Positions 26,703-48,211 of a stretch of 64,000 bases of DNA are shown here, in pieces. A program made the translations under genes and the position numbers. Source of the DNA: Rickettsiales bacterium. Its GTDB lineage: Bacteria; Pseudomonadota; Alphaproteobacteria; G027485855. The notes beneath the pieces are model-generated. The model saw only the letters and a program-made list of their open reading frames with translations, had not been told where the DNA came from and made no database searches. Every line of letters starts with the position of its first letter. The stretch's first letter is position 1. The stretch lies in NCBI GenBank assembly GCA_027485855.1, contig JAIXQD010000019.1, positions 146,256 to 210,255 of the forward strand. Direction: 5' to 3'.

Positions 26703-26705
26703 CGC

Positions 26706-29731: not shown

Positions 29732-30004
29732 TTATTTTGCCTGATAATCATACCACCTGCGGATTCTTTGGTGCCGGTGTGCTGGTCGTCGTGCGCCCAA
29801 AAGCCGGCGTCGCACAGCCCGCCATGCGGCATCATAAGCAAGACCGTTTCGCTCGAATAAATAAAATAACAAAGTGCAGAGGCACGCAAAAATAAGAGTG
29901 TAAAGCCTTAAATGCAAAACCAGCAGCAAAAACGGCACGGCTGCGCGCGCATCAAAGCCCAAAAAGCGCACCGGTTTCATACTGTTGCGCCAATGAACAT
30001 CCAT
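29732..30004 (-). CDS. icmT: IcmT/TraK-family small membrane protein
   Basis: 90 aa: HWRNSMKPVRFLGFDARAAVPFLLLVLHLRLYTLIF...FERNGL. This matches the IcmT pattern. Located directly after dotB. Confidence 0.72.
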   Translation of the reverse strand: MDVHWRNSMKPVRFLGFDARAAVPFLLLVLHLRLYTLIFACLCTLLFYLFERNGLAYDAAWRAVRRRLLGARRPAHRHQRIRRWYDYQAK

Positions 30005-31179: not shown

Positions 31180-32072
31180 CGCTCGCTCCGCGTGTTGAAT
31201 TGTGGCTGACCCGTGATGGTCACAGCGCGATCACCCACACGCATTTCAGTGCCATCACCCGACACGCCGCGCTCTTCTAACAGCGCAAAAGGCTCGCTAA
31301 TCATGCCTTGCTGCAATAATTCGCGGTAACGCACCATGCCGACAAAGTCGGCGGTCAAGCGGTCGAGATCGGCTTGAAAAACCTCATCGGCCTGAGTGCG
31401 GCCAGCTTCCCAGCCTTGGCGCAGATATTTTTGCCAAAGAATTTTTTCCTCGGCATTTTTGGGCAGCAATAAATCGGGCGGCGGCAAAACCTTACCCCAA
31501 TCGCGCTCTAAATAGAGACGCCAATCACGGGCGGCCGTGACAATACGCGCTTGCCGATTAATTTTAAGCACGCGCTCGGCCGTGGCTGCCGCTTGCCCGC
31601 CCGCTGTGACTAACACGGCACGCTGCGCCTCACTTACTACGGGCGGCTCAATGAGCAAGCCAGATGGCGCTTGCACCAAAAGCTGCCGAAAATCGAAGGT
31701 GCGGCTGAGCGCGCTATCTTGCTCGGCTAAGCGGCGCTGAATTTCGAAGGTGCGCAACGCCAAGCCAGCCCGTGCGCCATAAGATAAAGCGGCCTCGCGC
31801 AGGCCATCGGTGCGGATTTGCAAACCCATAGTGTTGCCAATCGTGCTTTCATCGGTGCCGCGGCGCTCAAGATTAAGCATATCAACCAGCGCAGGCGGTG
31901 GCGGTGAAGGCTCAACCACATTGGGCGTATCAAGAACATCTTGTGCCTGTGCCACCATGGGCGCGGCAAACAGTAAAGCCGCCAGCAGCAGCGCCAGAAT
32001 AGTTGGCTGCAGTTTTTTAGAGGCTGTTTTTGGCAACATAGCGAATTTCAATAGCATTGCGGTTGGGGTCAA
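31155..32072 (-). CDS. dotC: DotC/TraI(IncI)-family outer-membrane-associated protein
   Basis: About 300 aa with a signal peptide (LLAALLFAAPMVAQA). The call rests on size and its position between dotD and dotB. The true start is probably an internal Met (32057 or 32039). Confidence 0.7.
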   Translation of the reverse strand: MTPTAMLLKFAMLPKTASKKLQPTILALLLAALLFAAPMVAQAQDVLDTPNVVEPSPPPPALVDMLNLERRGTDESTIGNTMGLQIRTDGLREAALSYGARAGLALRTFEIQRRLAEQDSALSRTFDFRQLLVQAPSGLLIEPPVVSEAQRAVLVTAGGQAAATAERVLKINRQARIVTAARDWRLYLERDWGKVLPPPDLLLPKNAEEKILWQKYLRQGWEAGRTQADEVFQADLDRLTADFVGMVRYRELLQQGMISEPFALLEERGVSGDGTEMRVGDRAVTITGQPQFNTRSERWLPAPQQ

Positions 32073-32514
32073 CAGTGAGATCGCCCTGATTGGTTATCTG
32101 CAAGCCAACATCGCGCAAGACATGCACCAGCGGTTGCTCATAAGCATCGATATTGACCACCACCGGCACGGGCGGACGCGAGCCTAAAGTGCGATAGCTA
32201 TAGCCTGCGCGCATGGCCAATAACTCGGCAATTTGCTCGGCAGGCCCGCTCCAACGAATAGTTGTGGGCGTTTGCAAGGCGCTGGGCGCTGAAGCCACAT
32301 CATCAAAGGCGGTGGGCATGGGCGGCGTGCGGGTTTGCTCAACGCGCGAAATAGTTTGCAAGGCTGTCGCCGCTTTATTAGCGGCCTCTGCTATACGCAG
32401 CGACACCGAATCGGCCGCAGCCAAAGTGGGTGTGGGTGGCGGGCGACGCGCATTAGGATTGGCGCAAGCGACCAATGCTAATAACAGCGGCAGTAAAATA
32501 ATGTGGCGCATCAA
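32017..32514 (-). CDS. dotD: DotD/TraH(IncI)-family lipoprotein
   Basis: 165 aa with the lipobox LLALVAC. Size and position are typical of DotD. Confidence 0.72.
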   Translation of the reverse strand: MMRHIILLPLLLALVACANPNARRPPPTPTLAAADSVSLRIAEAANKAATALQTISRVEQTRTPPMPTAFDDVASAPSALQTPTTIRWSGPAEQIAELLAMRAGYSYRTLGSRPPVPVVVNIDAYEQPLVHVLRDVGLQITNQGDLTVDPNRNAIEIRYVAKNSL

Positions 32515-32643
32515 AGCTTCCTTACAAAATTTTTCTTATAGACAAAAGATAAAGCAAAACACCCAACTTGGCTATGCCCTCGCAGCAACACCTCGCCATT
32601 ACTTAAGCTTACCATGCCTCAACACCATCATGACTCACTGGCG

Positions 32644-32919
32644 CTACTTGCTATAAAGCCAAGCAAAACCAGCCAGCGTTGCGGCAGGCAGTAATTTTAT
32701 TAACCCGCTAATGTAACGACCCTCTATTACATCAACCACAGCCAGCATAAAAACCCCGCCCGATGCCAAGCCAAAAATAATCACACCGGGTGGTAGGCCC
32801 AGCCATAATTTATTTTTGGCCGCCGTAAGGCCACCAAGACCCGCAAGGCCTTGTGGTTTTTTGCTGACCATGGCGGGCGGCGCGGCACTGGTTTTTTGCG
32901 GCAGGTTTTTATCGGTCAT
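32644..32919 (-). CDS. Small two-TM membrane protein
   Basis: 91 aa with two hydrophobic helices. No recognisable family. Confidence 0.45.
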   Translation of the reverse strand: MTDKNLPQKTSAAPPAMVSKKPQGLAGLGGLTAAKNKLWLGLPPGVIIFGLASGGVFMLAVVDVIEGRYISGLIKLLPAATLAGFAWLYSK

Positions 32920-32934: not shown

Positions 32935-33867
32935 CTATTGAACTTTTACCGGTGGCGGCAAATCGGCAATGATTTGGCTGATTTGCTCGGGCACGCCATC
33001 AACCACTTTCACCACGCCTGCTCTATCGCGATAAACAATATAAGGCGTTGATGGCAGTTTCCACCGATCGAACAAAGCGCGATTAGAAATAACTTTTTGC
33101 AAACCGGGTAAGGGCGGGTTATCGGTGAGACCATCAAGCTTGCCATCGACAATGCGGTTCCAGCCGGCTTCTTTGTCGGCCATTTCAAGCCAATGGGCGG
33201 CAATATTGCGCGAGCGCTCGCCCAAAATATCCACCGGCACGAGGCGCAATTTCACGCTGCCCGCTTTCAGGTAAGGCTCGGCAAATTGCCCCCAAGCTTT
33301 TTTGCAGTGACGGCAGAGTGGGTCAACCACCATGGTCAGTTCTGGCGCATTGGCTTGGCCAATAGTCACGCCGTGCGCTGCCACGAGTTCGCGTAAAAGT
33401 TTTTCACCTGGCGAGACCGCCGCCGCACTCAGTTTTTGCTGACGCAACACATCGTCTTTGACTTGGCCGAAGGCATCTTGCATCTGGTTCATGCCTTGCT
33501 GAAACAAGGCCGCCACACGCGGGTCGCTATCGCGCAAGCGCTGCAATTGCTGGGCGGTGACCAGCTCGTCCTTATCGTTATAAAGCGCGCCATTCATCAG
33601 ACCGCGGCGGTCGGGCGTGGCGTAAAGGATTTGAATATTATCGTCGCGCTGCAATAAAAATCCGGGCATGCCATACTCATCGCCCAGATAAAAAACATTG
33701 GTGCCCGGCTGCACCATTTTTTCAATGAGCGCTTGGGCGGTGGGGTCGGGCTTGCCGAGTGCCGCGCCAGCCAAAGGGTTATCGGCCGTTTGTGCCATGG
33801 CCATAACCGGCAGCAAGAGGCCGAACAACAAAGCCAGAAAAGAAACGGGCAATAAACGCTTAACCAT
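32935..33867 (-). CDS. Periplasmic DsbC/TrbB-like thiol:disulfide interchange protein
   Basis: Has a signal peptide and the thioredoxin-fold CxxC motif VVDPLCRHCKKAW. Confidence 0.75.
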   Translation of the reverse strand: MVKRLLPVSFLALLFGLLLPVMAMAQTADNPLAGAALGKPDPTAQALIEKMVQPGTNVFYLGDEYGMPGFLLQRDDNIQILYATPDRRGLMNGALYNDKDELVTAQQLQRLRDSDPRVAALFQQGMNQMQDAFGQVKDDVLRQQKLSAAAVSPGEKLLRELVAAHGVTIGQANAPELTMVVDPLCRHCKKAWGQFAEPYLKAGSVKLRLVPVDILGERSRNIAAHWLEMADKEAGWNRIVDGKLDGLTDNPPLPGLQKVISNRALFDRWKLPSTPYIVYRDRAGVVKVVDGVPEQISQIIADLPPPVKVQ

Positions 33868-33899: not shown

Positions 33900-34394
33900 T
33901 TACCGCATCGCCAAAACTTGACCATTGACTGAACGCTCGGGCGCAATTTTGCTGACTGGCCCCACTGAAGTTGTTGGGGGGTAGTCTTTAATCAGCCCCT
34001 TGCGCTGCATGGCCAAAACAACCTTACGCGCATAGGCATAACCCAATTGTGGCGTGGCCGAATGGTAACGGGCAAAGCCGCCAAAAACCGAGCCGGTGCT
34101 TTTTATGTGCGTTTTCAAAATCCATGCCGCGACATGGGTATTGACGCATGGATCATCGCGCACCCAAGCCCGCGCGGTGCGCTCATCGACCTCCCACATT
34201 TTTGCAAGCTGCGGCAACCACACAGTGTTGATTTGCATGGGGCCTAAATCGTAGGTGCCGTTAGTATTAGGCCCCACCTCTTGCCCAACTCTGCCGCCCT
34301 CAACTTGATAAATGCCCACCAAATAGGCGGGCTCAAAGCTATAGAGCTGCGCTGCTGCAACAATACATGCCGCAAGTGTAGAGACAACGCCCAT
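33900..34394 (-). CDS. SLT-domain lytic transglycosylase (VirB1 / R64 PilT-like)
   Basis: Has IYQVEGGRVG (catalytic Glu context) and YDLGPMQINTVWL. Confidence 0.85.
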   Translation of the reverse strand: MGVVSTLAACIVAAAQLYSFEPAYLVGIYQVEGGRVGQEVGPNTNGTYDLGPMQINTVWLPQLAKMWEVDERTARAWVRDDPCVNTHVAAWILKTHIKSTGSVFGGFARYHSATPQLGYAYARKVVLAMQRKGLIKDYPPTTSVGPVSKIAPERSVNGQVLAMR

Positions 34395-34396
34395 GG

Positions 34397-35260
34397 CTAG
34401 CTTAACCCCGTATCATCAAGCTGGGCTGTGGCGGGCGGATCAACATAAGCCGCAAGCGTAGCCAGCATTGCCATGCGCTGATCAAATAATTGCCAGACAC
34501 GCTGCATCGGCACGACATTGCCATGCTGGGTGAAATAAGCCGCCCGCTCTTCTGGGTTCATATAGAGCAAGCGATCGGCCTCGGCATAATGGCTTTCAGT
34601 GTAGAGCTGGCCTGCGGCTTTTAAAAAACTATAGGCCAATGTCCGCCATTCGGCAGCAGAGCAACCGGCAGGCGCCAAGGCGCGGGTAAGTTGGTCGGTG
34701 GCCAGCACCAAACGCTCGGCAATGTCGGCAAGCAGGGCATGCTCTTGCCGGTTAAAGGCATATTGCGCAACTGCGCCCACCACCGGCGATAAAGCCTCAA
34801 GCATGCGCGCCCTAAAGGTGGCCAAACTATTGGCAGGCACATCATCATCGGCGCTGTGCAGCTGGGGTAATTTTTGCTCTAGCTTGAGCAGCAGGGCCAC
34901 GACAGCATCGGCCTCGGCCATCTCAAGCGGGCGGCCCGACGCACGATAATGTGCGGCAACGCATTGGCTGGCGGCACCCGTCACCGCCCAACGCGCCCAA
35001 TCATCGGCACCTTGACCAGACGCACCCAAATTTGCGGCAATGCTCTCGCTGAGTTGTGCAACACGATCGGCCAGCTCTTCAATGGTGTTGCTGGCATTGG
35101 CGATGGTAGCTTCATCTTGCCCGGCGGTGGGCGACACCTCACACACAGCGGCCAAGAGCGGCGCTGCCAGTTTTTGCAACATGGCCGTCAGCGCCCGCAG
35201 GCGCAGCGTGTCGGCCGAGATTGCGGTGTCTATATTTTGCGAGGGGGCGGGCGCGGTCAT
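34397..35260 (-). CDS. Hypothetical cytoplasmic protein
   Basis: 287 aa, helical and Ala/Leu-rich, with no signal peptide. No recognisable family. Confidence 0.45.
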   Translation of the reverse strand: MTAPAPSQNIDTAISADTLRLRALTAMLQKLAAPLLAAVCEVSPTAGQDEATIANASNTIEELADRVAQLSESIAANLGASGQGADDWARWAVTGAASQCVAAHYRASGRPLEMAEADAVVALLLKLEQKLPQLHSADDDVPANSLATFRARMLEALSPVVGAVAQYAFNRQEHALLADIAERLVLATDQLTRALAPAGCSAAEWRTLAYSFLKAAGQLYTESHYAEADRLLYMNPEERAAYFTQHGNVVPMQRVWQLFDQRMAMLATLAAYVDPPATAQLDDTGLS

Positions 35261-35266: not shown

Positions 35267-35836
35267 TTATCTTTTGTCTGGAATAAGGGGAGCAGTTGCA
35301 GGAGCTGGCACAGAAGAGGGTGTTGTGGCTTGTGGGGCACGCAAACGCGCCAGCTCTTTTTCGCTGCTACGATATTGGCACAAACCATAGCTAAGGCTGC
35401 CATTGCTGCCGCCTTGCTCATCGGCAGTGGCCGTATTGCAGGCCGCATCACGCGCCGCGACAAATTTATCAAAAGCCGCTTGTACGGCAGGGTCGATTTT
35501 TATGGCTGTGCCATCAGTGGGCTTTTGCTCGGTGGGTTTTTGCTGAGTGGGGCTGTGCATCGATTGCATCTGCGCTAACAGCACAGCATCAAGCTTGGCG
35601 CCTTCTTCGAAAATGCAATCGGTTTGGGCTAAAATATTTTCTAGCTGTTCGCAGCGGCTTAAATTGGGGGCTTTGCTATTGGCTGCCTCGGATGCTGCGG
35701 GTGCAGCCTTTGCGGCCACGGGCGCTGCTGTTTGCGAATGCGCCGGCAGCACAAAGGTCGCCGTGATAAGGCCAAATAAGGCCAAGGCGGTGATAAGCAA
35801 GCGCATGCGCATGATGCTCTTTTTTTGCTGTTGCAT
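35267..35836 (-). CDS. Periplasmic DUF1311/LprI-like protein; candidate immunity protein for the upstream lysozyme-like tail
   Basis: Has a signal peptide and a DUF1311-like Cys pattern: CEQLENILAQTDC...FVAARDAAC...GSNGSLSYGLC...ELARL. Its RBS AGGAGG lies inside the last codons of the upstream gene, with the ATG 3 nt after the stop. Confidence 0.55.
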   Translation of the reverse strand: MQQQKKSIMRMRLLITALALFGLITATFVLPAHSQTAAPVAAKAAPAASEAANSKAPNLSRCEQLENILAQTDCIFEEGAKLDAVLLAQMQSMHSPTQQKPTEQKPTDGTAIKIDPAVQAAFDKFVAARDAACNTATADEQGGSNGSLSYGLCQYRSSEKELARLRAPQATTPSSVPAPATAPLIPDKR

Positions 35837-35839: not shown

Positions 35840-38137
35840 TTAGCCTCCTGGTCTTGTTGGCGCTGCGGGTGCTGCAGCCGGACAGCTTGCCCGAACAATA
35901 TCCTCAATCTCGCGGGTGTAGCGCCCCTGACAGGCCGATGACCACCCACCTGTTGCCGCAGAGCAATACCCACCCCGCGAACGATACAATGCCCGCAATT
36001 GCGATTCAATGTCCATTGAGCGCCAATTGGGGTTTTCGCGCTCAAATTTGCTGAGCAAGGCGCCAACATTACCATGCTGCACGCCAATTGACCACATGGC
36101 CTGCTGCACACGAATATCATTCATATCCCAGCCACCCTGCCGGCGGAAATTATTAACGGCGTTACCGTAATTAACCCGCCTGATATATTCGTGCTGCATT
36201 TCGGCAAAATTGGGGTCGTTGATAGATTTCCATGCATTTTCAAAGGCGCGCCACGTTGTGGGGGTTGAGCCACGGCCATTATTGGGCGGCAAGAGCGGCT
36301 CAAGCCTTTGCCGAACCGGTGAATTGGCCGGAAGGCCCCGCACAAAAGCATGTACACTGCCCGCGGCGCCAGCCAATTGATAGCTCCCAAAAGACTTGCC
36401 GCCACGATCGCGCAAAGCCGCAGCATCGGAATTGACCGAGTTTGGATTGCCGTTCGATTCATAGCGAGCGGTAATCGTGCCAAGGCGGCATGCATCAATA
36501 GGTAAGCCACTGCCACTGCCCGGCCCCGTGAAGAAATCAAAGCCCTCGGGCACGCGCGCCAAAGCACCCAAAGCAAAATCGATATATTCGACATCAGCCA
36601 TCACGCCATTTTCGTCGGGCACATCAAAGACCGAGCCATAGCCTTTAGGCAAAGGCCGCTGCACGGGCTGTGCCCCCGCAGGTAAAACGGGATGCGGAAT
36701 ACGTTTTTTATCGGCCGACATCAGCGTGGCCTCAAGCAGCATGATTTGTTCAATCAGCTGGTTTTTGCGCCATTTAAGCTGATTAAGCGTGCCGAGGCTT
36801 TGATTGATATAACGCAATTTCACTGTGTCCGGCGCGGACGACGCGGCAATGTGCCACCTTGTGCTGAAACGCTCAGAAAACATCAATTCCATAATTTTAT
36901 GCTCGGACAACATCACATTATCCGGAATGGTATAGCCGGCTTCTTTCATCATGCCGCGCCCCCAAGTGAGAATACCCTCGGTGCTGCCGGCTTGGGGTGC
37001 CACCGGCATACGGCGCGCAATAATTTGCTGGCAGGTATAAAAAGCCAGCTGATTGCTGGCCTGCCAGCCACGCAATTTCATCAGATAGACCGGATTGGCG
37101 TTGGCTAAATTACCGCGCACCGGATCAAGCACGGTGGGCAGTACCACATTATCGCAATAAGCTTTGGCGGCCGCGCGCGCCCAGTCAGGCTGCTCGCCCG
37201 CCGCTTGCTGGCGCAAACGCAAAATATCATGCACCAGAATGGAGCGCGGATTTATATCCATATCGGGCAAAGCACCATTGATTTCTTTTGCATCAGCGCC
37301 ACGACAGCGCGGGTCTTGCGGGTTGGTGCTTTTACAATCTTGGAAAGAATGCATGCGGTCTTCGAAGCGCTTATTCACATCGGCCAACATGCCACGCGCT
37401 GCGGCAATTTCGCGCGCGGGCTGGCTAGAGCTAGATTGACCAGAGCTAGTTTGGCCAGAGCGAGACTGGCCTGCGGCGGGTGCTGCACCTGCCGGAGCTG
37501 CGGCCACTGCCGAAGCTGGATTTGCGCTAGCTGGGTTTGCAGATGCGCCACCCACTCTGCTAACGCCGCCACTATTGCCGCCACTATTGCCGCCACCCAG
37601 CGAGGCCGCCACTTGCTGCATACGCTCGGCGCTACTATCTTGCGTGCGATTAAGCAAACGATCTTCGGCTGACGCTGCCAGCAACGCTGCTTGCATTACG
37701 GTATTAGTTTCAACGGCGGCTAAATCGCGCTGGCCAGAGGCCACAACACAGCCTTGCCGACCCACATCGGGTGCAAATTTTTCGGCCACATCCATTTTGG
37801 CGCGGCGCTGTAAATTTTCGTATTTATTTTGAATTTCGGCGTTGGCAATTTTGCCCTTAACTTGTGCGCGCAATTGCTCGGCGGTGATATCGGCCGTAGC
37901 ACCCGCGCTTTTTAGATATTGCATTAAAGCCGCAAACACCGTTTGCAATATGGTGGCAACGCCGCCAATAGCCACACCGGTTGCCGCCATGGGAGCTGCG
38001 GCCGCATTACATTCGGCTTCAGCGGGGGGACATTGTACAACAGCCATCGACGCACGCACTGGCACAAGCACCAGCACGCCCGCCAAAATCATATGGCGAG
38101 TAAGCCTCATAATATTAAGCTTACGGCTTGATTGCAC
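35840..38137 (-). CDS. Paralogue A: shared N-domain plus a C-terminal lysozyme/SLT-superfamily-like domain
   Basis: GTG start with AAGGAG 5 nt upstream. Has a signal peptide, then a hydrophobic segment. The N-domain is very similar (by eye) to paralogue B. The C-terminal tail of about 221 aa (35843-36505) has ARYESNGNPNSVNS...GGKSFGSYQL, which resembles the E-S...N-P...G..G..Q pattern of SLT/VgrG3-type muramidases. Confidence 0.75.
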   Translation of the reverse strand: MQSSRKLNIMRLTRHMILAGVLVLVPVRASMAVVQCPPAEAECNAAAAPMAATGVAIGGVATILQTVFAALMQYLKSAGATADITAEQLRAQVKGKIANAEIQNKYENLQRRAKMDVAEKFAPDVGRQGCVVASGQRDLAAVETNTVMQAALLAASAEDRLLNRTQDSSAERMQQVAASLGGGNSGGNSGGVSRVGGASANPASANPASAVAAAPAGAAPAAGQSRSGQTSSGQSSSSQPAREIAAARGMLADVNKRFEDRMHSFQDCKSTNPQDPRCRGADAKEINGALPDMDINPRSILVHDILRLRQQAAGEQPDWARAAAKAYCDNVVLPTVLDPVRGNLANANPVYLMKLRGWQASNQLAFYTCQQIIARRMPVAPQAGSTEGILTWGRGMMKEAGYTIPDNVMLSEHKIMELMFSERFSTRWHIAASSAPDTVKLRYINQSLGTLNQLKWRKNQLIEQIMLLEATLMSADKKRIPHPVLPAGAQPVQRPLPKGYGSVFDVPDENGVMADVEYIDFALGALARVPEGFDFFTGPGSGSGLPIDACRLGTITARYESNGNPNSVNSDAAALRDRGGKSFGSYQLAGAAGSVHAFVRGLPANSPVRQRLEPLLPPNNGRGSTPTTWRAFENAWKSINDPNFAEMQHEYIRRVNYGNAVNNFRRQGGWDMNDIRVQQAMWSIGVQHGNVGALLSKFERENPNWRSMDIESQLRALYRSRGGYCSAATGGWSSACQGRYTREIEDIVRASCPAAAPAAPTRPGG

Positions 38138-38163
38138 AAATGCTCCTTATCGGTTTGTTGTCA

Positions 38164-38547
38164 CTACTGTGTTAATTTATCAAATAACTTAAGTGCGGTT
38201 TCTCGCGGCACGCCATTGCTACGCAAAACGCTTTCGCTGGGCACGCCGCCATCAAAATACAGCACCGACCATTTGCCCTTATCTTGCTTAAGTACAAATG
38301 GACCCGCCGACACTTCGTCCTGCCAATAGCCCGATACATAAGGCGGCACCGAGCGGCTAACACTAATTTCCATGCCGGCAACCTTACCGGGATTAAGCAA
38401 GCCCTCGGCCACGGCTTGCATTTTTTGGTCGGCCGCTTCAACACCCGCTGGTAATTTTGCCGGCGCGCTTTGGGCGGCATTACCGATGCCAAACACCGTT
38501 AAAACCAAAACCAAGAACGAGCCAAAAAAGATGCGCTTATGTTTCAT
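38164..38547 (-). CDS. Small periplasmic protein; candidate immunity protein for the upstream CHAP tail
   Basis: 127 aa with the signal peptide MKHKRIFFGSFLVLVLTVFGIGNAAQS. The ATG lies 8 nt after the upstream stop, with a GGTAGGAGA RBS. Confidence 0.5.
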   Translation of the reverse strand: MKHKRIFFGSFLVLVLTVFGIGNAAQSAPAKLPAGVEAADQKMQAVAEGLLNPGKVAGMEISVSRSVPPYVSGYWQDEVSAGPFVLKQDKGKWSVLYFDGGVPSESVLRSNGVPRETALKLFDKLTQ

Positions 38548-38555
38548 AGTGTCTC

Positions 38556-40541
38556 CTACCCACGGGGCCGATAAATTTGTGTGGCACCACCAAACCTGTT
38601 AAAATAGCCATTACGTGCCAAGCCCACATTGGCACCGCGCCCATTATTATTATAGGCCAGCGTGCAGCCCACATTGGCGCAAATGCCCACATGGCTATAC
38701 ATACGGCCGCCCACCACACCACGTATCATCACAATATCGCCGGGCTGCGCTTGTCCGGGGCTGACGCGTGTGCCACCGCCACTTTGTAAATAATTCTGCA
38801 TGCCGGCCACGCTGAGCGTGCCACCGGGAGGAATCATGCTGCGCCCCGATGCGGCCAGCAAATAATTGACATATTGGGCGCAGCCAAGGTTGCCCGTATA
38901 GGCAGGGCCGCACACCACCGCACCATTACGGCCGCTGGTGCAGTTAGTCGCATCGGCATAGCCACCCGGAATGGGCCGCCCCACTAAAGATTGCGCAAGC
39001 GCCATAAGATCGTTGCTGACAACTTGAATGCCAGATAGGCCGCCGCCGCCCTCGGCAACATCGCCGCCCGTGCCATCAAAATCAATATTATCGCCTTGCA
39101 GTTCGGCAAAAGAGGCTTCGGCTAAATCAAAATCGACATAGCGCACATCGTCGTTCACGCCATCCGCATTGACATCTAAATCAAGAATCTCGCCAACACC
39201 CGTGGGCAGCGGTAAGCTGGTGGGAGTTGCACCTGGCGCTAATTGTGGCAGTGGTATTTTGTTTTTATCGCTGGATAAAATGCTCGCTTCGAGCAGGCCA
39301 AGTTGCTCAAGCAGTTCGTGCTTGCGCCATTTCAGCTGATTATAAGTGCCAAATGTTTGGCTGATATAACGCAGTTTTACACTGTCAGGGGCGCTGGCGG
39401 CGGCGATATTCCAGCTGGTGCTGAAGCGCTCACGAAACAGCAATTCCATAATTTTATGCTCGGACAACACAGCATCGGCCGGAATATCATAGCCAAATTC
39501 TTGCATCAGCGCCTTGCCCCAGTTCAGCGGGCTTGCAGCATTGCCGCCCGCTTCGGCCGAAATGGGCATGCGCCGTGCGGCAATCTGCGCGCAAACATGC
39601 CCCGCCAGCTGTTTGGCCGCCTGCCAGCCGCGCAGTTTCATCATGTAAACCGGATTGGCGTTGGCCAAATTGCCCCGCACCGGATCCAGCGTGACGGGCA
39701 ATATCACATTTTCGCAATAGGTGAGCGCGGCCAGCTTGGCCCAATCGGGCTCGCTTGGGTTTTGATAGCGCAGGCGCAAAATATCGTGCGTTAAAATAGT
39801 GCGCGGCATAATATCAAAATCGGCCAAGGCACCATCGGTGCATTCAGTGTTTTTGGGGTCGGTGTTTTTACAATTTTGGAAATTGAGCATGCGTTTTTCA
39901 AAGCGCTCATTCACATCGGCCAGCATGCCACGCGCGGCGGCCACCTCGGCGCAGGCACTGTCATTATCGGCTGCCGCCGGAATATCAAGCCCCAATAAAC
40001 GAGCCGTTTGGCGCAAGCGCTCATGCGCCGAGCCGCAATCACGATTAACCAGGCGGTCTTCGACCGCAGCTTCAATCGGCACGGCTTGCAGCGCCGAGTT
40101 ATTTTCGGCCGCCATCAGCGCTTGCTGACCCGAGGCCGCAACACAGCTTTGCCGGCCAACATCCGGCGTGAAATTTTGCGCAACCTGCATTTTGGCTTCG
40201 CGCTGCATGTTTTCGTAACTTGCCTGATTTTCGGCATTGGCGATTTTTGCACTGACTTGCGCACTGAGCTGCTGCGCCGATACTTCGGCCGTGCTGCCCG
40301 CGCTTTCTAAAAACTGCATAATAGCCACAAAGGCTGCTTGAATGGCTGTGGCCACCGCAGTCAAAGCGCCACCCACAGCAACAGTGGGTGCAATGGCCGC
40401 AGCACAACCAGGGCAAGTATCCATCGCGGCGCTGGCCTGTGCGGCGCGCGGCGGCAGGGCCAGCCCCACCACCAACAGCAACGCCATCACGCCAAAACGG
40501 CAGCGCGCCATACGAGTACCTGCGCCAGCAAGAGACAGCAT
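38556..40541 (-). CDS. Paralogue B: shared N-domain plus a C-terminal CHAP/NlpC-P60-like domain
   Basis: ATG at 40541 has AAGGAGG 8 nt upstream. The ORF-track start at 40712 would overlap paralogue C. The C-terminal 150 aa (38559-39008) has GCAQYVNYLL (Cys nucleophile context) and GDIVMIRG...YSHVGIC (His), which is a CHAP/NlpC-P60 arrangement. Confidence 0.75.
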   Translation of the reverse strand: MLSLAGAGTRMARCRFGVMALLLVVGLALPPRAAQASAAMDTCPGCAAAIAPTVAVGGALTAVATAIQAAFVAIMQFLESAGSTAEVSAQQLSAQVSAKIANAENQASYENMQREAKMQVAQNFTPDVGRQSCVAASGQQALMAAENNSALQAVPIEAAVEDRLVNRDCGSAHERLRQTARLLGLDIPAAADNDSACAEVAAARGMLADVNERFEKRMLNFQNCKNTDPKNTECTDGALADFDIMPRTILTHDILRLRYQNPSEPDWAKLAALTYCENVILPVTLDPVRGNLANANPVYMMKLRGWQAAKQLAGHVCAQIAARRMPISAEAGGNAASPLNWGKALMQEFGYDIPADAVLSEHKIMELLFRERFSTSWNIAAASAPDSVKLRYISQTFGTYNQLKWRKHELLEQLGLLEASILSSDKNKIPLPQLAPGATPTSLPLPTGVGEILDLDVNADGVNDDVRYVDFDLAEASFAELQGDNIDFDGTGGDVAEGGGGLSGIQVVSNDLMALAQSLVGRPIPGGYADATNCTSGRNGAVVCGPAYTGNLGCAQYVNYLLAASGRSMIPPGGTLSVAGMQNYLQSGGGTRVSPGQAQPGDIVMIRGVVGGRMYSHVGICANVGCTLAYNNNGRGANVGLARNGYFNRFGGATQIYRPRG

Positions 40542-40560
40542 TGATAAGTGCCTCCTTTGC

Positions 40561-41820
40561 TTATTTTTCCCACGGCGCTTTCGCCGATGTGGGCGTGGCA
40601 CCCGCGGGCAAGACCGGCGGATTATCCTGCAACACAGCCGAAAGCTGCGCTGCACGCAACATAGCCAAACGCTCGAGCATTTCATATTCGCGCCACTCTT
40701 GCTGCGAGACAAACGCCAAAGACTGGTTGATAGAGGTCAGCATGTCTTTCGGTTCGCTATTGGCGTAAAAGGCCACATCCTTGAAAATATCGTAGTAAAG
40801 CGTGCGCAAAATATCTTGCTCTGAAGCATTTTCCGGCACGGTGCGGCCAACACGGGCGGCAATGGTTTTGCCCCATTCAAGCCTGCTGGTATCAACTGGT
40901 GCGCCACCGCGCGTCACTTCGTTGGCGGGCGTGCGCGTGGTCATTATGTCAAGGCAGACGAGATCGACCAAGCTGAGGCGCGCATCCACACCACGACGCT
41001 GCATGTGATAGACCCGACCTTGCGGGCTATTCAGCAACTGGCCCGTGACGGGATCAGGCACAACGGGGTCTTTGATGTGGCTACAAAAAAGCTGAGCTGC
41101 GCCCACATGGCCATCATCGCCCGAGCCCAAATTATCGGACAGCAGAATATCGGCGCGAATATCGGTGTTTCTCTTGTTGGGGTCATCTTGGCAGCGTGGA
41201 TTTTTGGGGTCAACCTGATCGCAATCAAGATAGCCGCCCTTGGCCAAAGCGACCACACTGGCCGACGCATCGGCCTGCGTGCCGCGCTGGGCGGGGCCTG
41301 CAGCATTAGTGCTGCGCTTTAATGCATTGCCACGAGCCACACTGGCTAAAAAGCGCGTATTGGCTGCCGCTGCTGTTGCCGCTTGCGCACCCGATGCGCG
41401 CACGCACGCATCTTTATTGGTGGATGGGGCATATTGCTGCGCCACCCGCATTTTGGCTTCGCGCTGCAGATTTTCAAAATCATTCTGAATTTTGGCATTG
41501 GCTATTTTAGCGTCAATTTGTGCTTGCAACTGCACCGCCGAAACTTTGGCCGTGCTGCCCGCGCTGGTGATAAAACTGAGCATCAGCTGCATAGCAGTGA
41601 TAGCGGCAGTTAACACGCCTGTGACCGCAGCACCAACAGCCGTAACCGCGCCCACCAACGCTTGCGCTTGTGCCACTTGCGGCGTGCCAAACAACAAAGC
41701 ACCCGCCAGCAACAAAGTGGCCGCGCCCCTGCCTAAAGACCCCAAGGGATTTTTTCGCGGATTTTTTTGCGGATTTTGCCGCCGATTTTGCCCCGCGCTA
41801 TTTTGCATAAGCTGGTGCAT
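40561..41820 (-). CDS. Paralogue C: the shared N-domain only, with no enzymatic tail
   Basis: 419 aa. Aligns by eye with A and B: SAGSTAKVSAVQLQAQIDAKIANAKIQNDFENLQREAKMRVAQ matches SAG[AS]TA[DE][IV][ST]A[EQ]QL..QV..KIANAE.QN.YEN[LM]QR.AKM.VA. Ends just after the shared LPAGATP junction. Confidence 0.7.
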   Translation of the reverse strand: MHQLMQNSAGQNRRQNPQKNPRKNPLGSLGRGAATLLLAGALLFGTPQVAQAQALVGAVTAVGAAVTGVLTAAITAMQLMLSFITSAGSTAKVSAVQLQAQIDAKIANAKIQNDFENLQREAKMRVAQQYAPSTNKDACVRASGAQAATAAAANTRFLASVARGNALKRSTNAAGPAQRGTQADASASVVALAKGGYLDCDQVDPKNPRCQDDPNKRNTDIRADILLSDNLGSGDDGHVGAAQLFCSHIKDPVVPDPVTGQLLNSPQGRVYHMQRRGVDARLSLVDLVCLDIMTTRTPANEVTRGGAPVDTSRLEWGKTIAARVGRTVPENASEQDILRTLYYDIFKDVAFYANSEPKDMLTSINQSLAFVSQQEWREYEMLERLAMLRAAQLSAVLQDNPPVLPAGATPTSAKAPWEK

Positions 41821-42890
41821 TAGTTACCCCCTCGCGGCGCAAAGGGCGAGGTTATACCCGGCACCCGTGTTGTGCCTATCTCCTTATCGGTATCTCTCGT
41901 GCGGAACTGGAAGGTCACGCCACGCGAAGGCATATTGGCATTGCGTGCTTCAAGGCTGCGTGGGTCCATAATATCTTGTGCCGAAAGATCGACGCCAAAA
42001 ATGCGCGCCCCACGGAACAGGCCGCTAATATCGCCGCCATCACGCAGCGGCGCCCAGCCATCACAGAAACCACCATGCACATTACCGAGCTGATTAAGGT
42101 CAGGGCCGATATTGAGAAAATCTAACCCAGGAATGCAAATTGAATTGGCGATAAAATCAACCGCCATTTGAAGGGCCTGACAGGCCGCATTAATGACCGC
42201 ATCAATGATTTGTTTGAAAATCATATCGGCCAGCGCGCGCACTAAACCCAGCGGGTCGCTCAAAATTTTAATGAGGTCGAAAGCCGCAAACATTTTCACG
42301 AGGCAAAAGCGGTCTTCGATTTTTCGGGGGCCCTCGCCTAAGGCGTTCATATTGGCCGCCAAGGCGTTGGTGGCTTGCGCTTCGCTGCCGGCGACAATGG
42401 CATCTTGAATAGGGTCTAAGCAATCTTCGGTGGACATGGCTTTTGCAGCGGCATTGCCATAATCGGTTGCGGCCTTATTGGCTTTATCGCTGCCAGGCAC
42501 ACCTGGCACTGGCCCCGAACCTGTCATTTGTGCGGCAGCTTTATCAAGCGCGCTGCTCAGCTCTTTGGGGTTGGTTACTTCGCTGGCTGTTGGCACGGGC
42601 GATGGGTCGGGGTCGGTTGTGCCCGTATTGCCGCCCGTATTGCCACCCGTGTTACCAGTTGTGGTAATATTTGCCGTACCGCGCGAATTACCGGTTGTTA
42701 TGCCATCAGCAATAAAAGGCGGCTCATCCGCAGGATTCACCGGAACCCGCGGATTAGATATAACTGGCGCTGCAGGTGCGGCAACGCCGCCACCAATCAC
42801 TCGGTCTGGTGTGGCAATAGCAGGCGAGATCCCAAATACAAATAACGCGCAGAGCAACGCAAAGGTCAGAATAAATGAGCGTAGCAACAT
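41820..42890 (-). CDS. Secreted ORFan with a G/N/T-rich linker and a Cys-containing helical C-domain
   Basis: Start chosen at MLLRSFILTFALLCALFVFG (GGAGAGG RBS). Its stop overlaps the paralogue C start (TAATG). Confidence 0.55.
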   Translation of the reverse strand: MLLRSFILTFALLCALFVFGISPAIATPDRVIGGGVAAPAAPVISNPRVPVNPADEPPFIADGITTGNSRGTANITTTGNTGGNTGGNTGTTDPDPSPVPTASEVTNPKELSSALDKAAAQMTGSGPVPGVPGSDKANKAATDYGNAAAKAMSTEDCLDPIQDAIVAGSEAQATNALAANMNALGEGPRKIEDRFCLVKMFAAFDLIKILSDPLGLVRALADMIFKQIIDAVINAACQALQMAVDFIANSICIPGLDFLNIGPDLNQLGNVHGGFCDGWAPLRDGGDISGLFRGARIFGVDLSAQDIMDPRSLEARNANMPSRGVTFQFRTRDTDKEIGTTRVPGITSPFAPRGGN

Positions 42891-43025
42891 GGGCCTCTCC
42901 CGATTCTTCACACGATTCTTCACACAATTATTCATTGGCGCGCGAAATTTAAACATTTAGCCTTACATTTATGGCTGATTATGCTTAAAGCAACCTTAAT
43001 TGTTTTGCAGCCGTTTTTATACAGC

Positions 43026-43622: not shown

Positions 43623-44063
43623 CTATTCGCGCTCGTCGCGCTTGGTGCGCTCGCGCCGCTCGTGCCGCTCTTGCGCTTCAAGGCTGAGTGTGGCGATTGG
43701 CCGCGCATCAAGGCGTTTTACGCCAATGGGGTCGCCGGTTTCTTCGCAATAGCCATAGCTGCCATCTTCAACGCGCAGCAAGGCTTCTTCAATTTTGCCC
43801 AATAATTTGCGCTCGCGATCGCGGGTGCGAAACTCAAGACCAAGGCTGGTTTCGGCGCTGGCTCTATCGGCGATATCGGGCTCTTGCATGCCGCCGCCAT
43901 CAATATTTTCGAGCGTGTCATGCGATTGCTGCAAAAGCTCTTCTTTCCAGAGCATCAGTTTTTGCCGGAAGAACTCAAGCATCATCGGGTTCATGTAGGG
44001 CTCTTTTTCGCTGGGGCGATAATCGGGCGGCAATTGCGGCGGCAAAATTTTAGTGGCGGTCAT
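43623..44063 (-). CDS. dksA: RNA polymerase-binding transcription factor DksA
   Basis: 146 aa with a coiled-coil region containing DIADRASAE (DxxDxA tip). The zinc-finger region is YGYCEETGDPIGVKRLDARP. It appears to retain only part of the four-Cys motif. Confidence 0.9.
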   Translation of the reverse strand: MTATKILPPQLPPDYRPSEKEPYMNPMMLEFFRQKLMLWKEELLQQSHDTLENIDGGGMQEPDIADRASAETSLGLEFRTRDRERKLLGKIEEALLRVEDGSYGYCEETGDPIGVKRLDARPIATLSLEAQERHERRERTKRDERE

Positions 44064-44126
44064 GGAGGCCTCACAAGATGGTAGGTGCCAAATTATAGAA
44101 AAGCCAAGCGCGTCTGTCTAGCGAGG

Positions 44127-44561
44127 CTATAAGGAATAATGTTTCGCAAGCTCAACTTGAACCCGAAGATCGATATCATCCAACAGTGCACTCATTTCTG
44201 GGTCGGCAAGATCGGGGCGCTTGCTGGCCACCAAGCGTGCCAATTGCAGCAATTTATCGCGCGACAGGCCGCCCATCAGCAGCTGCACGCGCAAATCTTC
44301 GAGGCGGTCGAGCAATTCATTGGCACGCTGCCGCGCCTTGCGCCGGCGCTCGGTTTGCTCATTGATTTCCTGCAAACCAATAAGCCCATCAACGCTTGAG
44401 AGCGGCCCTGCACTTGTGGCTGCAGCCGCGGCACCAGCCTTGCTGCCCGCATCTAAATGCTTGGCAAACTCAACTTTGCTATTGCTGCCACTGCTGGCAT
44501 TGCTTCGGCTGACTGGAGCGCCACTGCGCGTGCCGCCAACGCCGCCTTCAATTTTAGTCAC
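44127..44561 (-). CDS. fliX: Flagellar assembly regulator FliX
   Basis: 144 aa, divergent from flgI as in Caulobacter. The C-terminus LLDDIDLRVQVELAK is FliX-like. GTG start with an AAGGAG RBS. Confidence 0.72.
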   Translation of the reverse strand: MTKIEGGVGGTRSGAPVSRSNASSGSNSKVEFAKHLDAGSKAGAAAAATSAGPLSSVDGLIGLQEINEQTERRRKARQRANELLDRLEDLRVQLLMGGLSRDKLLQLARLVASKRPDLADPEMSALLDDIDLRVQVELAKHYSL

Positions 44562-44669
44562 AATTTTTGCTCCTTACTATGCTTATACACTTAACCGATT
44601 TGGCTTAACAGGGGTTAAACAACACACCACGCTAACTTAATATTCGGCTGATTGTTTCTGCTACAAAAC

Positions 44670-44685
44670 TGGCACGCGGCTTGCA
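44670..44685 (+). promoter_or_regulatory. Sigma-54 (-24/-12) promoter for flgI
   Basis: TGGCAC-gcggc-TTGCA is an exact match to TGGCAC-N5-TTGCW. It lies about 30 nt upstream of the flgI ATG. Confidence 0.7.
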
Positions 44686-44713
44686 TAACACACCCTGCAA
44701 TGTGGAGGGAAAC

Positions 44714-45838
44714 ATGCGAGTGACCATTTTAAAGCGTTTTTTGGCTCTAACTTTAGCGGCGATTTTGGCCATGCCCTCGCCCGCTTTAGCCAACGGCGTG
44801 CGCATAAAAGATATCGCCGATGTTGAGGGCGTGCGCGAAAACCTGATGGTAGGGTATGGTCTTGTTGTTGGCCTGAATGGCACAGGCGATAGTCTTACCA
44901 ACTCGCCCTTCACTGAAAAAAGCTTGATTGGTATGTTAGAGCGCCTTGGCGTGAACACACGCGGCGATAATCTTAAAACTAAAAACGTTGCCGCCGTGAT
45001 GGTAACAGCCATGCTGCCACCTTTTGCCAGCCAAGGCTCAAAAGTAGATGTGACCATTTCGGCCCTTGGTGACGCCAAAAGCCTGTTGGGCGGCACTTTG
45101 CTGGTAACACCGCTCTTAGGTGCCGATGGTGAGGTTTATTCAGTGGCGCAAGGCTCGGTTGCGGTGGGTGGCTTTTCGGCAGAGGGGCAAGGCCAAAGCA
45201 TAACCAAAGGCGTGCCCACATCGGGCCGCATTGCCAGTGGCGCTGTAGTTGAGCGCGAGATTCCGTTTTCTTTGGCCGACCTGCCCTATTTGCGCCTGGC
45301 CTTGCGCAACCCAGATTTTACCACGGCGCGGCGCGTGGCCACAGCCATTAATAAGGGGCTGGGCGCCAATGTGGCACAAGCCCCCGACCCCGCGACCATT
45401 GTTGTTGACCTACCCGCCGACAAACGCGCCGACATGGTGGGGCTCATGACCAAAATAGAGCAAATCACCGTGGTGCCCGACCAGCCGGCTAAAGTGGTTA
45501 TTGATGAGCAATCCGGCACGATTGTTATGGGCGAGAATGTGCGCATCAGCACGGTTGCTATTGCGCAAGGCAACCTCACTATTCGCATTACTGAAACGCC
45601 GCAAGTATCGCAACCCAACGCACTCAGCAGTGGCGGCACCACCACCACCGTGCCGCGCACCGAAGTTTCGGTTGATGAATCGGGCGATAAAAAACTCGGC
45701 ATTGTGCAAAGCAGTGTGAGCTTACAGGATTTGGTGCAAAGCCTGAATACTTTGGGCATTGGCCCACGCGATATGATTGTTATCCTACAATCCATTAAAG
45801 CGGCCGGCGCCTTGCAAGCCGACATTGAGGTGCTGTAA
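44714..45838 (+). CDS. flgI: Flagellar P-ring protein FlgI
   Basis: Begins MRVTILKRFLALTLAAILAMPSPALA (signal peptide), followed by RIKDIADVEGVRENLMVGYGLVVGLNGTGD. GGAGGG RBS. The ORF-track start at 44681 falls inside the promoter. Confidence 0.95.
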   Translation: MRVTILKRFLALTLAAILAMPSPALANGVRIKDIADVEGVRENLMVGYGLVVGLNGTGDSLTNSPFTEKSLIGMLERLGVNTRGDNLKTKNVAAVMVTAMLPPFASQGSKVDVTISALGDAKSLLGGTLLVTPLLGADGEVYSVAQGSVAVGGFSAEGQGQSITKGVPTSGRIASGAVVEREIPFSLADLPYLRLALRNPDFTTARRVATAINKGLGANVAQAPDPATIVVDLPADKRADMVGLMTKIEQITVVPDQPAKVVIDEQSGTIVMGENVRISTVAIAQGNLTIRITETPQVSQPNALSSGGTTTTVPRTEVSVDESGDKKLGIVQSSVSLQDLVQSLNTLGIGPRDMIVILQSIKAAGALQADIEVL

Positions 45839-46200
45839 TGGATGCGCTGGGCAGCCTGCCAAATGTTGAAATTGCGCAAATGCGCGCGCGTAGTGCGCCG
45901 CAAGCGCAAGCAAAGGCAGAGACATCGCCCAGCATTGGCAATTTGCTGGCCAAGCACAAAGCCAGCCCCGAGCAATTACAAAAAATGGCCAAGGACTATG
46001 AAGCCGTTTTTATCACGCAATTACTGCAACCGATGTTTGCCGGCCTTGATACCGACCCAGAGGCCGGTGGCGGCGGCAGCGCCGAAGAAAGCTATCGCGG
46101 CCTCATGCTGCAAGAATATGGCAAAGTTTTTGCCGCCCGCGGTGGCTTAGGCATGACGCCCATTTTGACCAAAGAATTTCTACGGTTACAGGAGAAATAG
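45838..46200 (+). CDS. Rod-binding protein (FlgJ N-domain / CheL-like)
   Basis: 120 aa with the rod-binding motif AKDYEAVFITQLLQPMF. ATGA-type overlap with flgI. Confidence 0.75.
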   Translation: MDALGSLPNVEIAQMRARSAPQAQAKAETSPSIGNLLAKHKASPEQLQKMAKDYEAVFITQLLQPMFAGLDTDPEAGGGGSAEESYRGLMLQEYGKVFAARGGLGMTPILTKEFLRLQEK

Positions 46201-46201
46201 C

Positions 46202-46693
46202 ATGAGCCAAAAGCCAGTGCCGCCACCCGCCCCCACAGCCAATGCCGATGATGCCCTGCTCTATTTAGAAAAGCGCTTGGTGAGCCTTGCTAAAATCGCC
46301 GATGAGCTGGTGGCACTCATGGAAGAGGAAAACATTTTAATTGAGCGCACCAACCCCGAGGCGCTCAACCCACTCGTGAAAAAAAAGCAACTGTTGGTGC
46401 GCGACTATCAAACCGCCATGACCGGCCTTGTTGGCACACCAGAAAGCCGCGCCTTGCTCAGCGAGGCACATCGGCAACATTTGCGCCAGCTCTGTGGCCG
46501 TCTCGATGAAGCCACCACCACCAATGCACTTAAACTAAAAGCGGCGGCCAATGCCAATGAACGCTTGCTGCATATTATTGTGCAAGCGGTTCGGCGCGAG
46601 CAGCAAAGCCTTAATCCTTATAGCGCTGGCAGTAGTCAGCACATTAAGGGCGATAAATCGGCGGGGCCAGTGGCGGTTAATCGTATGCTCTAA
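46202..46693 (+). CDS. Flagellar-cluster protein, possibly FlgN/FlbY-like
   Basis: 163 aa, helical. The call is positional only. Confidence 0.4.
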   Translation: MSQKPVPPPAPTANADDALLYLEKRLVSLAKIADELVALMEEENILIERTNPEALNPLVKKKQLLVRDYQTAMTGLVGTPESRALLSEAHRQHLRQLCGRLDEATTTNALKLKAAANANERLLHIIVQAVRREQQSLNPYSAGSSQHIKGDKSAGPVAVNRML

Positions 46694-46771
46694 AAATTGG
46701 CAGCAGAAATTGGCACCAGTCTTGCACATTCATTTTTAACGGCGCGTAAAAACAACAGAACAGGGTTTACA

Positions 46772-48202: not shown

Positions 48203-48211
48203 GAGAGCAGC

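Follow-up and report, generated by a model that had tools for sequence, protein, structure and literature searches.

The window analyzed here is a 64-kb stretch of DNA (contig JAIXQD010000019.1, positions 146,256 to 210,255, of a genome labelled Rickettsiales bacterium), and our subject is an array of three tandem genes within it, A, B and C, all on the minus strand. The N-terminal domain shared by their products appears to be a remote member of the TraW family of type IVB secretion system (T4BSS) proteins. In A and B this domain is extended by two different putative peptidoglycan hydrolases, and each of these two genes is followed by a gene for a small exported protein. We tentatively favor, at slightly less than an even chance, the explanation that A and B are T4BSS tip proteins with enzyme tails beyond the natural C-terminus and with cognate periplasmic partners, and that the enzymes are aimed at the wall of prey cells. 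In our literature searches we met with no account of a wall hydrolase joined to a protein of the TraW/IcmX/VirB5 type.

The three open reading frames (ORFs) are intact and lie at 40561–41820 (C, 419 amino acids [aa]), 38556–40541 (B, 661 aa) and 35840–38137 (A, 765 aa). A and B are identical at 259 of 498 aligned residues (52%; BLASTP E=8e-162), and A aligns with C in two blocks, one of them 40% identical (E=2e-22) and the other 32% (E=2e-26). About 100 columns of the three-way alignment are invariant, five of them cysteines. The similarity is far beyond chance, and the genes are tandem paralogues with a constant N-terminal region, as had been described in an earlier reading of the letters alone (the sequence-only reading). 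That reading also had the proteins become unrelated after a shared LP(A/P)GA(Q/T)P motif, which is not so: A and B remain alike for ~25 aa more, in a common linker ending ...Y(I/V)DF(A/D)L, and are without significant BLASTP similarity beyond ~A523/B473. Hence, the point at which the tails are swapped lies downstream of the motif. Nor does LPxGAxP look like a dedicated demarcation motif: in C it stands just before the stop; C ends 8 residues past LPAGATP, and short Pro-rich C-terminal stretches also end other members of the TraW-like family. B consists of a TraW-like domain (39207–40439), the shared linker and a CHAP/NlpC-P60-like tail (~38568–38894). A consists of a TraW-like domain (36647–38056), the linker and a VgrG3-type muramidase domain (36041–36484). 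The extended TraW-like domain of A includes a Gly/Ser/Asn/Ala/Pro-rich low-complexity insert of ~58 residues (37424–37597, minus strand; GGGNSGGNSGG...ANPASANPASA...SGQTSSGQSSSSQ) that is absent from B and C. The ORF of B is open upstream as far as a TTG at 40712; the ATG at 40541, the start already assigned from the letters alone, agrees with the public gene call. B starts 19 nt downstream of C, and no small ORF follows C.

What is the shared N-terminal domain? It had been taken for an unknown trafficking domain, and our data point instead to the TraW family. Close relatives are scarce. A word-indexed search of 5.8 billion proteins with the N-domain of B found only A and B, the same kind of search with an alignment of the family returned almost only self matches, and a scan of 185,579 species genomes with the three N-domains gave no match. 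A hidden Markov model (HMM) built from the window proteins nonetheless retrieved 26 distant relatives from 1.84 billion representative proteins (best E=1e-16), most of them 330–480 aa long. In tblastn searches, C matched (E=1e-6) a 391-aa ORF of Acetobacter conjugative plasmids of mating-pair-formation type I (MPF_I), one gene upstream of DotA/TraY. This ORF matches the NCBIfam model conj_TraW over nearly its whole length (E=4.4e-7; 29.4 bits, against a cut-off of 100), and three of 25 family members match the same model weakly. Using hhalign, the family profile aligned with TraW of plasmid R64 over 193 columns, in the C-terminal half, with 96.5% probability (E=7.5e-10); the probability was still 96.1% when the Acetobacter sequence was left out. 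By comparison, 40 other R64 and Acetobacter T4BSS proteins scored at most 1.4%, and TraF and TrbA scored 0.2%. A profile of the window proteins alone reached the Acetobacter TraW-like protein at 93.5%. Together, these observations argue that the carrier is a remote TraW-family protein, an identity that we regard as well supported. The Acetobacter equivalent is itself annotated as a “hypothetical protein” (L002 19449–20624, NZ_CP042809.1, and 15 other Acetobacter plasmids).

A, B and C appear to share a layout of signal peptide, hydrophobic N-terminal helix, Cys-rich middle and long C-terminal helix. IcmX has been described with a signal peptide, a hydrophobic N-terminal helix, an extended Cys-containing middle and a long C-terminal helix (PMC12501162). 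Two N-terminal hydrophobic segments are evident from hydropathy in A (windows starting at 9–18 and 46–55) and B (11–18 and 45–60). For C, the second segment alone is above the threshold, so the proposal of a Sec signal peptide plus a second hydrophobic segment in all three proteins stands by hydropathy for A and B and, as regards the signal peptide of C, by eye. Most simply, the second segment is an IcmX-type N-terminal helix. TraW is equated with IcmX and VirB5 in recent reviews (tabulated in PMC12624023; PMC12857230), the exported subunit that makes up the distal part of the translocation channel or its tip. In situ work has described IcmX as a pentamer on the axis of the machine, above DotA, and IcmX is a machine part that both reaches and leaves the cell surface.

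Several distant TraW-family proteins from metagenomes (P0013, P0016, P0023 and P0024) carry an N-terminal Peptidase_M23 domain, a C-terminal NlpC/P60-CHAP domain or an N-terminal SLT-like region. Metagenome scans for P0016 and P0024 found nothing. Hydrolase domains or long heads appear to have been gained independently by distant members of the family.

The tail of A was described from the letters alone as muramidase-like, and database searches bear this out. Residues 552–699 match PF21277 (T6SS_VgrG3-like_C; 71.2 bits against a cut-off of 27, E=1.5e-19), and the tail matches the VgrG3C chains of PDB entries 4noo and 4nso (E=8e-6), with the catalytic-region motif YES.G ... D.GG.S.G.YQ kept. 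Hence, its identity as a VgrG3-type muramidase is well supported by homology. Plasmid-borne relatives of this domain lie inside 2,423-aa and 1,170-aa proteins of phage-tail-like clusters; a word-indexed homologue search with the A tail gave almost only self matches.

The tail of B (the last ~110 residues) scores below the Pfam cut-offs for CHAP (E=1.5e-4; 22.6 bits, cut-off 26), NLPC_P60 (E=2.4e-3; 18.3 bits, cut-off 23) and DUF6950 (17.5 bits, cut-off 27). Its motifs and homologues nevertheless agree with the Cys/His papain-like tail proposed earlier. It shares 40–42% identity with the C-termini of two cyanobacterial proteins, of 771 aa and 868 aa (E=6e-15 and 3e-14), that are encoded in conjugative type IV secretion system (T4SS) clusters, beside VirB10 and the coupling protein. 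The motifs GC(A)xxVN (GC(A)QYVN) and HVGIC.N.GC (SHVGIC) are common to the B tail and the Leptolyngbya and Acaryochloris homologues. We take the Cys of the first motif and the His of the second to be catalytic, as in the papain-like family. On this evidence the tail is probably a papain-like (CHAP/NlpC-P60-type) wall hydrolase. Modelling followed by Foldseek comparison had been suggested in the sequence-only reading as a check on each domain. For the B tail, the AlphaFold2 model from a single sequence (predicted local distance difference test score, pLDDT, of 50.8) was too poor for fold comparison, and Foldseek with this low-confidence model returned nothing significant, the top non-significant matches being papain-like proteases. 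A recent foreign origin of the tails was considered and ruled out, as their GC content and third-codon-position GC content (GC3) match those of the neighborhood.

The cyanobacterial clusters are of interest in their own right. Each (L089 5000–7730; L088 4733–7689) encodes a large hydrolase with a GH19 annotation and a CHAP-like C-terminus, and a conserved ORF of 117 aa comes after it. Between the two clusters these small ORFs share 31% identity (E=3e-11); a signal peptide is present in one of them. The arrangement has the look of a hydrolase-partner pair that annotation has missed.

Each of the two tailed genes, and not the tail-less C, is followed by a small gene, as had been seen from the letters alone: a 189-aa protein (35267–35836, minus strand) is encoded 3 nt after A, and a 127-aa protein (38164–38547, minus strand) 8 nt after B. 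Both have signal-peptide-like N-termini. The 127-aa protein, a candidate inhibitor or immunity partner of the B tail, resembles the 117-aa ORFs directly after the Leptolyngbya and Acaryochloris hydrolases (BLASTP E=0.002), and it was the sole match of a two-sequence HMM of those ORFs among the 608 ORFs of the window (E=0.0013). Since this comparison was fixed beforehand by gene position, we count it as fair support for the view that hydrolase and partner form a conserved cassette, one that would be shared across phyla with the two cyanobacterial plasmids. The 189-aa protein is a candidate lysozyme-inhibitor-like partner of the A tail; its best PDB match, which is not significant (E=0.29), is a DUF1311 protein. 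We infer that the two proteins are inhibitors of the tails that precede them.

To place the array in a wider context, we scanned the DotB protein of the window against the 185,579 species genomes and obtained 80 loci with 66–76% identity (related loci are given L numbers throughout). All 80 belong to Micavibrio aeruginosavorus, other Micavibrio, or uncultured Alphaproteobacteria and “Bdellovibrionales” metagenome-assembled genomes (MAGs); NCBI places Micavibrio under Bdellovibrionales. The TraW array is part of a chromosomal module that comprises the upstream partner gene, the array, a 287-aa protein, an SLT lytic transglycosylase, a DsbG-like protein, DotD, DotC, DotB, IcmT and a type IVb pilus. 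The module occurs in Micavibrio-like bacteria, among which is an obligate epibiotic predator. The set from the 287-aa protein, SLT, DsbG, DotD, DotC, DotB and IcmT to PilL recurs in 53–80 of the 80 loci, and tandem TraW-like arrays of two to three genes were recognized with the family HMM in 14 loci, where the flanking sequence reaches them. The nearest relatives, L004 and L047, have the gene order of the window, with two tail-less TraW copies and no small ORFs. Relative to L004, DotB is 74%, DotC 57% and the 287-aa protein 52% identical, and TraW is undetectable by tblastn. TraW-like proteins diverge far faster than the core of the module. No A-like or B-like tails, and none of their partners, were present in any related locus examined.

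In Micavibrio proper, the TraW arrays lie beside flgK/flgL, and within the 21-kb stretches covered there PilL is followed by flgL/flgK, not by PilN–PilS. One member of each Micavibrio-type array is 559–870 aa long and has a 220–520-residue N-terminal extension with no Pfam match; these extensions may be adhesin-like heads. Examples, all on the minus strand, are at L067 16745–18694, L068 16796–18610, L058 16885–19497, L061 16388–18067 and L082 16060–17991, and the extension in L058 includes a long run of degenerate “NFSP..L..L” repeats. A 764-aa protein beside the Micavibrio array was considered as DotA and proved to be FlgK, followed by FlgL. We also asked whether any of several large ORFs close to the module in relatives could be a divergent TraW-like protein, and rejected them.

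Core T4BSS genes do occur near the module in relatives: DotA (L017 899–4117), DotO and a DotM-like protein (L024 12434–17289), DotO...DotG–DotH (L066 12006–21159, and L059), DotI (L033 6565–7200) and DotL (L021 1–1122). In M. aeruginosavorus HCB189 (L073 19771–21094), DotI and the start of DotH adjoin the TraW array. This suggests that the clade has a scattered chromosomal I-type T4BSS besides its type IVb pilus, and that the window holds just a portion of that system. The 2011 ARL-13 genome paper reported no signs of a secretion system of type III or type IV, and our literature searches found no paper tying Micavibrio to these genes.

What is the functional significance of TraW-like proteins that end in wall-cutting enzymes? 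In the explanation we favor, two TraW copies would have gained an enzyme domain, each arriving with a small periplasmic partner gene. A, B and C would be exported by Sec and oxidized with the help of the DsbG-like protein, and the partner proteins would hold the tails silent in the producer's periplasm. At the axis or tip of the machine, the TraW parts would come together by way of their N- and C-terminal helices. On contact with prey the tip would be pushed out or set free, which has been reported for IcmX, and prey peptidoglycan would be cut locally by the tails so as to anchor, open or kill. That the target might be a prey cell had been raised in the sequence-only reading, and it agrees with the place of Micavibrio, an epibiotic predator, and of allied MAGs as closest relatives of the locus. 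We infer both the tip location of A, B and C and a target in prey rather than self.

The main rival explanation is that the tails of A and B cut the producer's own peptidoglycan for assembly of the T4BSS or the pilus, and that the partners restrain the enzymes until assembly. We consider this unlikely, if the least unlikely of the alternatives. The homology to TraW indicates that the N-domain is a structural component of a T4SS, which the sequence-only reading had set down as the first half of what would speak against its own model, and a structural carrier suits a role in assembly. There are precedents for machine-bound hydrolases of this kind: FlgJ, which combines a rod cap with a muramidase; VirB1, through VirB1–VirB5; and the PrgK/CwlT-type hydrolases of conjugation. 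Support of the same kind comes from the B tail, whose closest relatives form part of large proteins in cyanobacterial clusters for conjugative T4SSs, with VirB10 and the coupling protein as neighbors and a homologous small ORF after each, and the M23, SLT-like or NlpC/P60 domains on other TraW-family members suggest a general coupling of tip and hydrolase. However, the module already has a conserved, dedicated SLT enzyme. L004, L047 and Micavibrio have the same module with tail-less TraW-like proteins, so the tails are not needed for assembly. Furthermore, the A tail belongs to a family of T6SS (type VI secretion system) or phage-tail projectile enzymes, and we know of no housekeeping machine-associated lytic enzymes that need cognate inhibitors.

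These considerations also underlie our preference for an outward role. Because relatives run the same module with the SLT enzyme alone, the tails are best viewed as accessory, and only the tailed genes bring an exported partner. The domain of A is otherwise found on projectile proteins, namely a T6SS spike and proteins of phage-tail-like clusters. TraW-like proteins diverge faster than the core, and distant members have acquired hydrolase domains or heads. Lastly, IcmX is the part of the machine that gets to the cell surface and leaves it. Each of these points argues for tips with enzymes directed at prey.

Nonetheless, a number of observations weigh against this explanation. The carrier domain is not recognized by Pfam or NCBIfam, and A, B and C are without a match to conj_TraW (NF033888); a profile of the three window proteins alone does not detect R64 TraW. 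Since the window sequences miss R64 TraW and the controls stay low, the link is transitive but specific, and it remains remote. AlphaFold2 modelling of the N-domain from three sequences produced long N- and C-terminal helices, but with a pLDDT of only 38.6. Deep alignments for structure prediction were out of reach because the word-indexed searches gave almost only self matches. The family profile of the N-domain has no PDB match in sequence and profile searches, and PDB searches with the N-domain family and R64 TraW found no IcmX or TraW structure. As to the partners, the match of the 127-aa protein is marginal, with E=0.0099 in a larger decoy set in which an unrelated ORF scored equally. The 189-aa protein is below the cut-off of 22 bits for Pfam LprI/DUF1311 (19–20 bits, E=0.001–0.002), and no homologue of it lies next to other PF21277 enzymes among the ORFs after two such enzymes and the plasmids searched. 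The nearest relatives of the B tail are conjugation-associated hydrolases, and the usual view of such hydrolases is that their substrate is the wall of the donor itself. DotA, DotG, DotH, DotI, DotO, DotL, DotM and a coupling protein are not found within the window; by analogy with relatives, we assume that the missing core genes lie elsewhere in this genome. A predatory lifestyle of the source organism would likewise follow by analogy with relatives only, and photoheterotrophy has been described for at least one MAG of the Micavibrionales (PMC9933672).

The surroundings of the array bear on two further alternatives. A co-directional run on the minus strand, with gaps of a few nt, extends from 43613 down to ~18117; the genes of this run described below are on that strand. 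Directly upstream of the array is a gene for a 378-aa exported protein (41820–42956), the stop of which overlaps the start of C. In L004, L047 and L029, TraW-like genes have a homologue of it upstream (E=4e-9, 4e-6 and 1.6e-4, respectively), and it is weakly like the Acetobacter plasmid ORF upstream of the TraW-like gene there (E=0.001). By these matches it appears to be a conserved upstream partner, in the position held by TraV in R64. As a TraV homologue it was ruled out, with no similarity to R64 TraV (hhalign 0.1%).

Downstream of the array lies a gene for the 287-aa protein (34397–35260), which is without a signal peptide; its homologues, 27–52% identical, occur in 59 of the 80 loci and always adjoin the SLT gene. 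The latter encodes a VirB1/TrbN/IagB-like lytic transglycosylase (33900–34394; Pfam SLT E=1.8e-6, NCBIfam TrbN E=2.5e-21) and is present in 64 of the 80 loci. It is followed by a gene for a DsbG/DsbC-like periplasmic disulfide isomerase (32935–33867; NCBIfam DsbG E=7e-28) that resembles the thiol:disulfide interchange protein of an Acetobacter plasmid (E=4e-16). Disulfide isomerase is the role of TrbB in IncI plasmids. A 91-aa membrane protein, DotD/TraH, DotC/TraI, the ATPase DotB/TraJ and IcmT/TraK are encoded at 29732–32919. Their assignments derive from Pfam (DotD E=9e-30, T4SS_TraI E=4.5e-76, T2SSE E=3e-36), from R64 TraJ (E=1.6e-53) and TraI (E=1.5e-26), and, for IcmT, from 46% identity (E=6e-17). 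The pilus genes (18117–29543) encode PilL, the secretin PilN, PilO, PilP, the ATPase PilQ, PilR, the pilin PilS, a 197-aa ORF, a PilV-like minor pilin and a 138-aa ORF, with Pfam matches to TcpQ, Secretin, PAP_PilO, T2SSE, T2SSF, PilS/Bundlin and N_methyl. The type IVb pilus and partial Dot/Icm neighborhood described from the letters alone is thus confirmed.

Some features of this region merit mention apart from the array. The PilV-like minor pilin (18546–19916) has an N-terminal methylation motif and a C-terminal Peptidase_S74 domain (E=1.9e-15). Peptidase_S74 is a self-cleaving intramolecular-chaperone and trimerization module of phage tail fibers and spikes, which suggests a trimeric, fiber-like adhesin at the pilus tip. 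The run is flanked by chromosomal genes, gap on one side and dksA, fliX, flgI, fliK and flgD on the other; the module adjoins flagellar genes both here (43623–48925) and in Micavibrio (flgL and flgK, L073 13149–16503). Further away, a 1,613-aa ORF (53684–58525, minus strand) with no Pfam match at E<=0.001 adjoins a gene for a Heparinase II/III-like protein (59263–60975).

The tight, co-directional spacing of A and B with a complete-looking type IVb pilus set, together with the partial T4BSS complement of the window and the signal peptides and exported partners, is what the model of the sequence-only reading would lead one to expect. That model makes A and B soluble polymorphic toxins, brought to the periplasm by Sec and sent out through the pilus as TcpF and CofJ are, with the N-domain a mere carrier. 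We consider it improbable. The N-domain is homologous to a channel or tip protein of the T4BSS and not to known pilus-secreted proteins, and Pfam and NCBIfam scans gave no match of A, B or C to TcpF or CofJ. Export of this type has no specific support. The Micavibrio arrays lie near the DotDCB module and DotI/DotH, in stretches where PilL leads directly into flagellar genes. Since relatives carry DotA, DotG, DotH, DotI, DotO, DotL and DotM near the same module, export by the pilus is also less necessary. The label of polymorphic toxin holds insofar as the tails differ within this genome, and fails insofar as there are no orphan cassettes, and no C-terminal tails in the related genomes inspected. 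Downstream there are no extra toxin or immunity cassettes, the next gene being the conserved one for the 287-aa protein. Variation of the tails between strains, which had been anticipated, was not seen: there are no close homologues in the sets of 5.8 billion and 1.84 billion proteins or in the 185,579 species genomes.

The complement of TraH-I-J-K, type IVb pilus, TraW, DsbC-like protein and SLT mirrors IncI plasmids, and core T4BSS genes are missing from the window. One could therefore regard the locus as the decaying remnant of an integrated IncI-like plasmid, and the TraW duplicates and tails as debris without current function. This is very improbable. All the ORFs are intact and in tight operon spacing, the module lies on the chromosome and has been conserved in dozens of divergent genomes, and the GC content and GC3 of the tails match those of their surroundings. 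No tRNA gene lies within the window, and there is no integrase among the window ORFs scanned against Pfam.

We return to tips with enzyme tails aimed at prey. A wider and bolder proposal, which we consider unlikely, is that Micavibrio-like epibiotic predators have a domesticated apparatus of IncI type on the chromosome, made up of a T4BSS and a type IVb pilus and not recognized in the 2011 genome paper, and that it serves as an organelle of prey attack. Its TraW/IcmX-like tips would be encoded in fast-evolving arrays and would display interchangeable prey-directed modules, either adhesin-like heads or inhibitor-protected hydrolase tails, and A and B would be the first “evolved tips” of a T4SS. 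Whatever the target, we describe a conserved chromosomal T4BSS-derived module with multiplied TraW/IcmX-like proteins that here appear to be armed with two different wall-cutting enzymes. If they are directed at prey, they offer a concrete candidate, and one amenable to genetics, for the device with which Micavibrio and further epibiotic predators get through the envelope of their prey. If instead they serve self-directed remodelling, TraW-hydrolase fusions would hint at where and how T4BSS machines cross peptidoglycan, and would favor the idea that the VirB5-type subunit and wall hydrolases are linked in function.

How do A and B compare with known systems? Like FlgJ, VirB1, PrgK/CwlT and the cyanobacterial hydrolases of L088 and L089, they tie a hydrolase to an envelope-spanning machine, and the L088 and L089 proteins share with B a homologous C-terminal CHAP-like domain (40–42% identity) and a homologous small ORF after each. 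Unlike A and B, the L088 and L089 proteins have no match to the TraW profile and hence no fusion to a TraW/VirB5-type subunit; moreover, the locus studied here already has its own SLT enzyme, and its relatives lack the tails. There is also a likeness to bacteria-killing T4SSs, the X-T4SS and the kib system, in that a T4SS is used, or in our case proposed to be used, against other bacteria. The X-T4SS has peptidoglycan hydrolase effectors with adjacent periplasmic immunity. The kib system is a T4BSS able to kill bacteria, with a cytosolic effector-immunity pair. In both, however, the coupling protein recruits the effectors, which are cytoplasmic substrates in their own right, whereas here the enzyme would be covalently part of an exported machine subunit.

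Compared with TraW of the IncI1 plasmid R64, and with IcmX and VirB5, the array shows specific remote homology over the C-terminal half, a tail-less form of the same size (~400–470 aa), what appears to be the same layout of signal peptide, hydrophobic N-helix, Cys-containing middle and long C-helix, and an association with genes for DotB, DotC, DotD, IcmT, a DsbC-like protein and SLT. It differs in that there are three tandem copies rather than one, chromosomal rather than plasmid-borne, two of which have C-terminal peptidoglycan hydrolases and partner genes. In addition, no DotA/TraY adjoins the array within the window, and the curated TraW model is unmatched.

A further parallel in design is VgrG3 of Vibrio cholerae, an “evolved” VgrG. 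In VgrG3, and as we propose in A, a structural tip protein is extended at its C-terminus by a muramidase of the same family (PF21277; PDB 4noo), and paralogous tips with and without enzyme tails occur in one genome. The periplasmic immunity protein of VgrG3, TsiV3, is encoded adjacent to it, and we liken it to the partner genes described here. In contrast, our carrier is unrelated to VgrG, the machine is a T4BSS and type IVb pilus rather than a contractile tail, and the 189-aa partner is not similar to TsiV3. A and B also carry signal peptides for Sec, while VgrGs stay in the cytoplasm until they are fired. If our preferred explanation is true, A and B would be the first example of a T4SS tip or channel subunit as the covalent carrier of an antibacterial enzyme, and thus the T4SS counterpart of evolved VgrG spikes.

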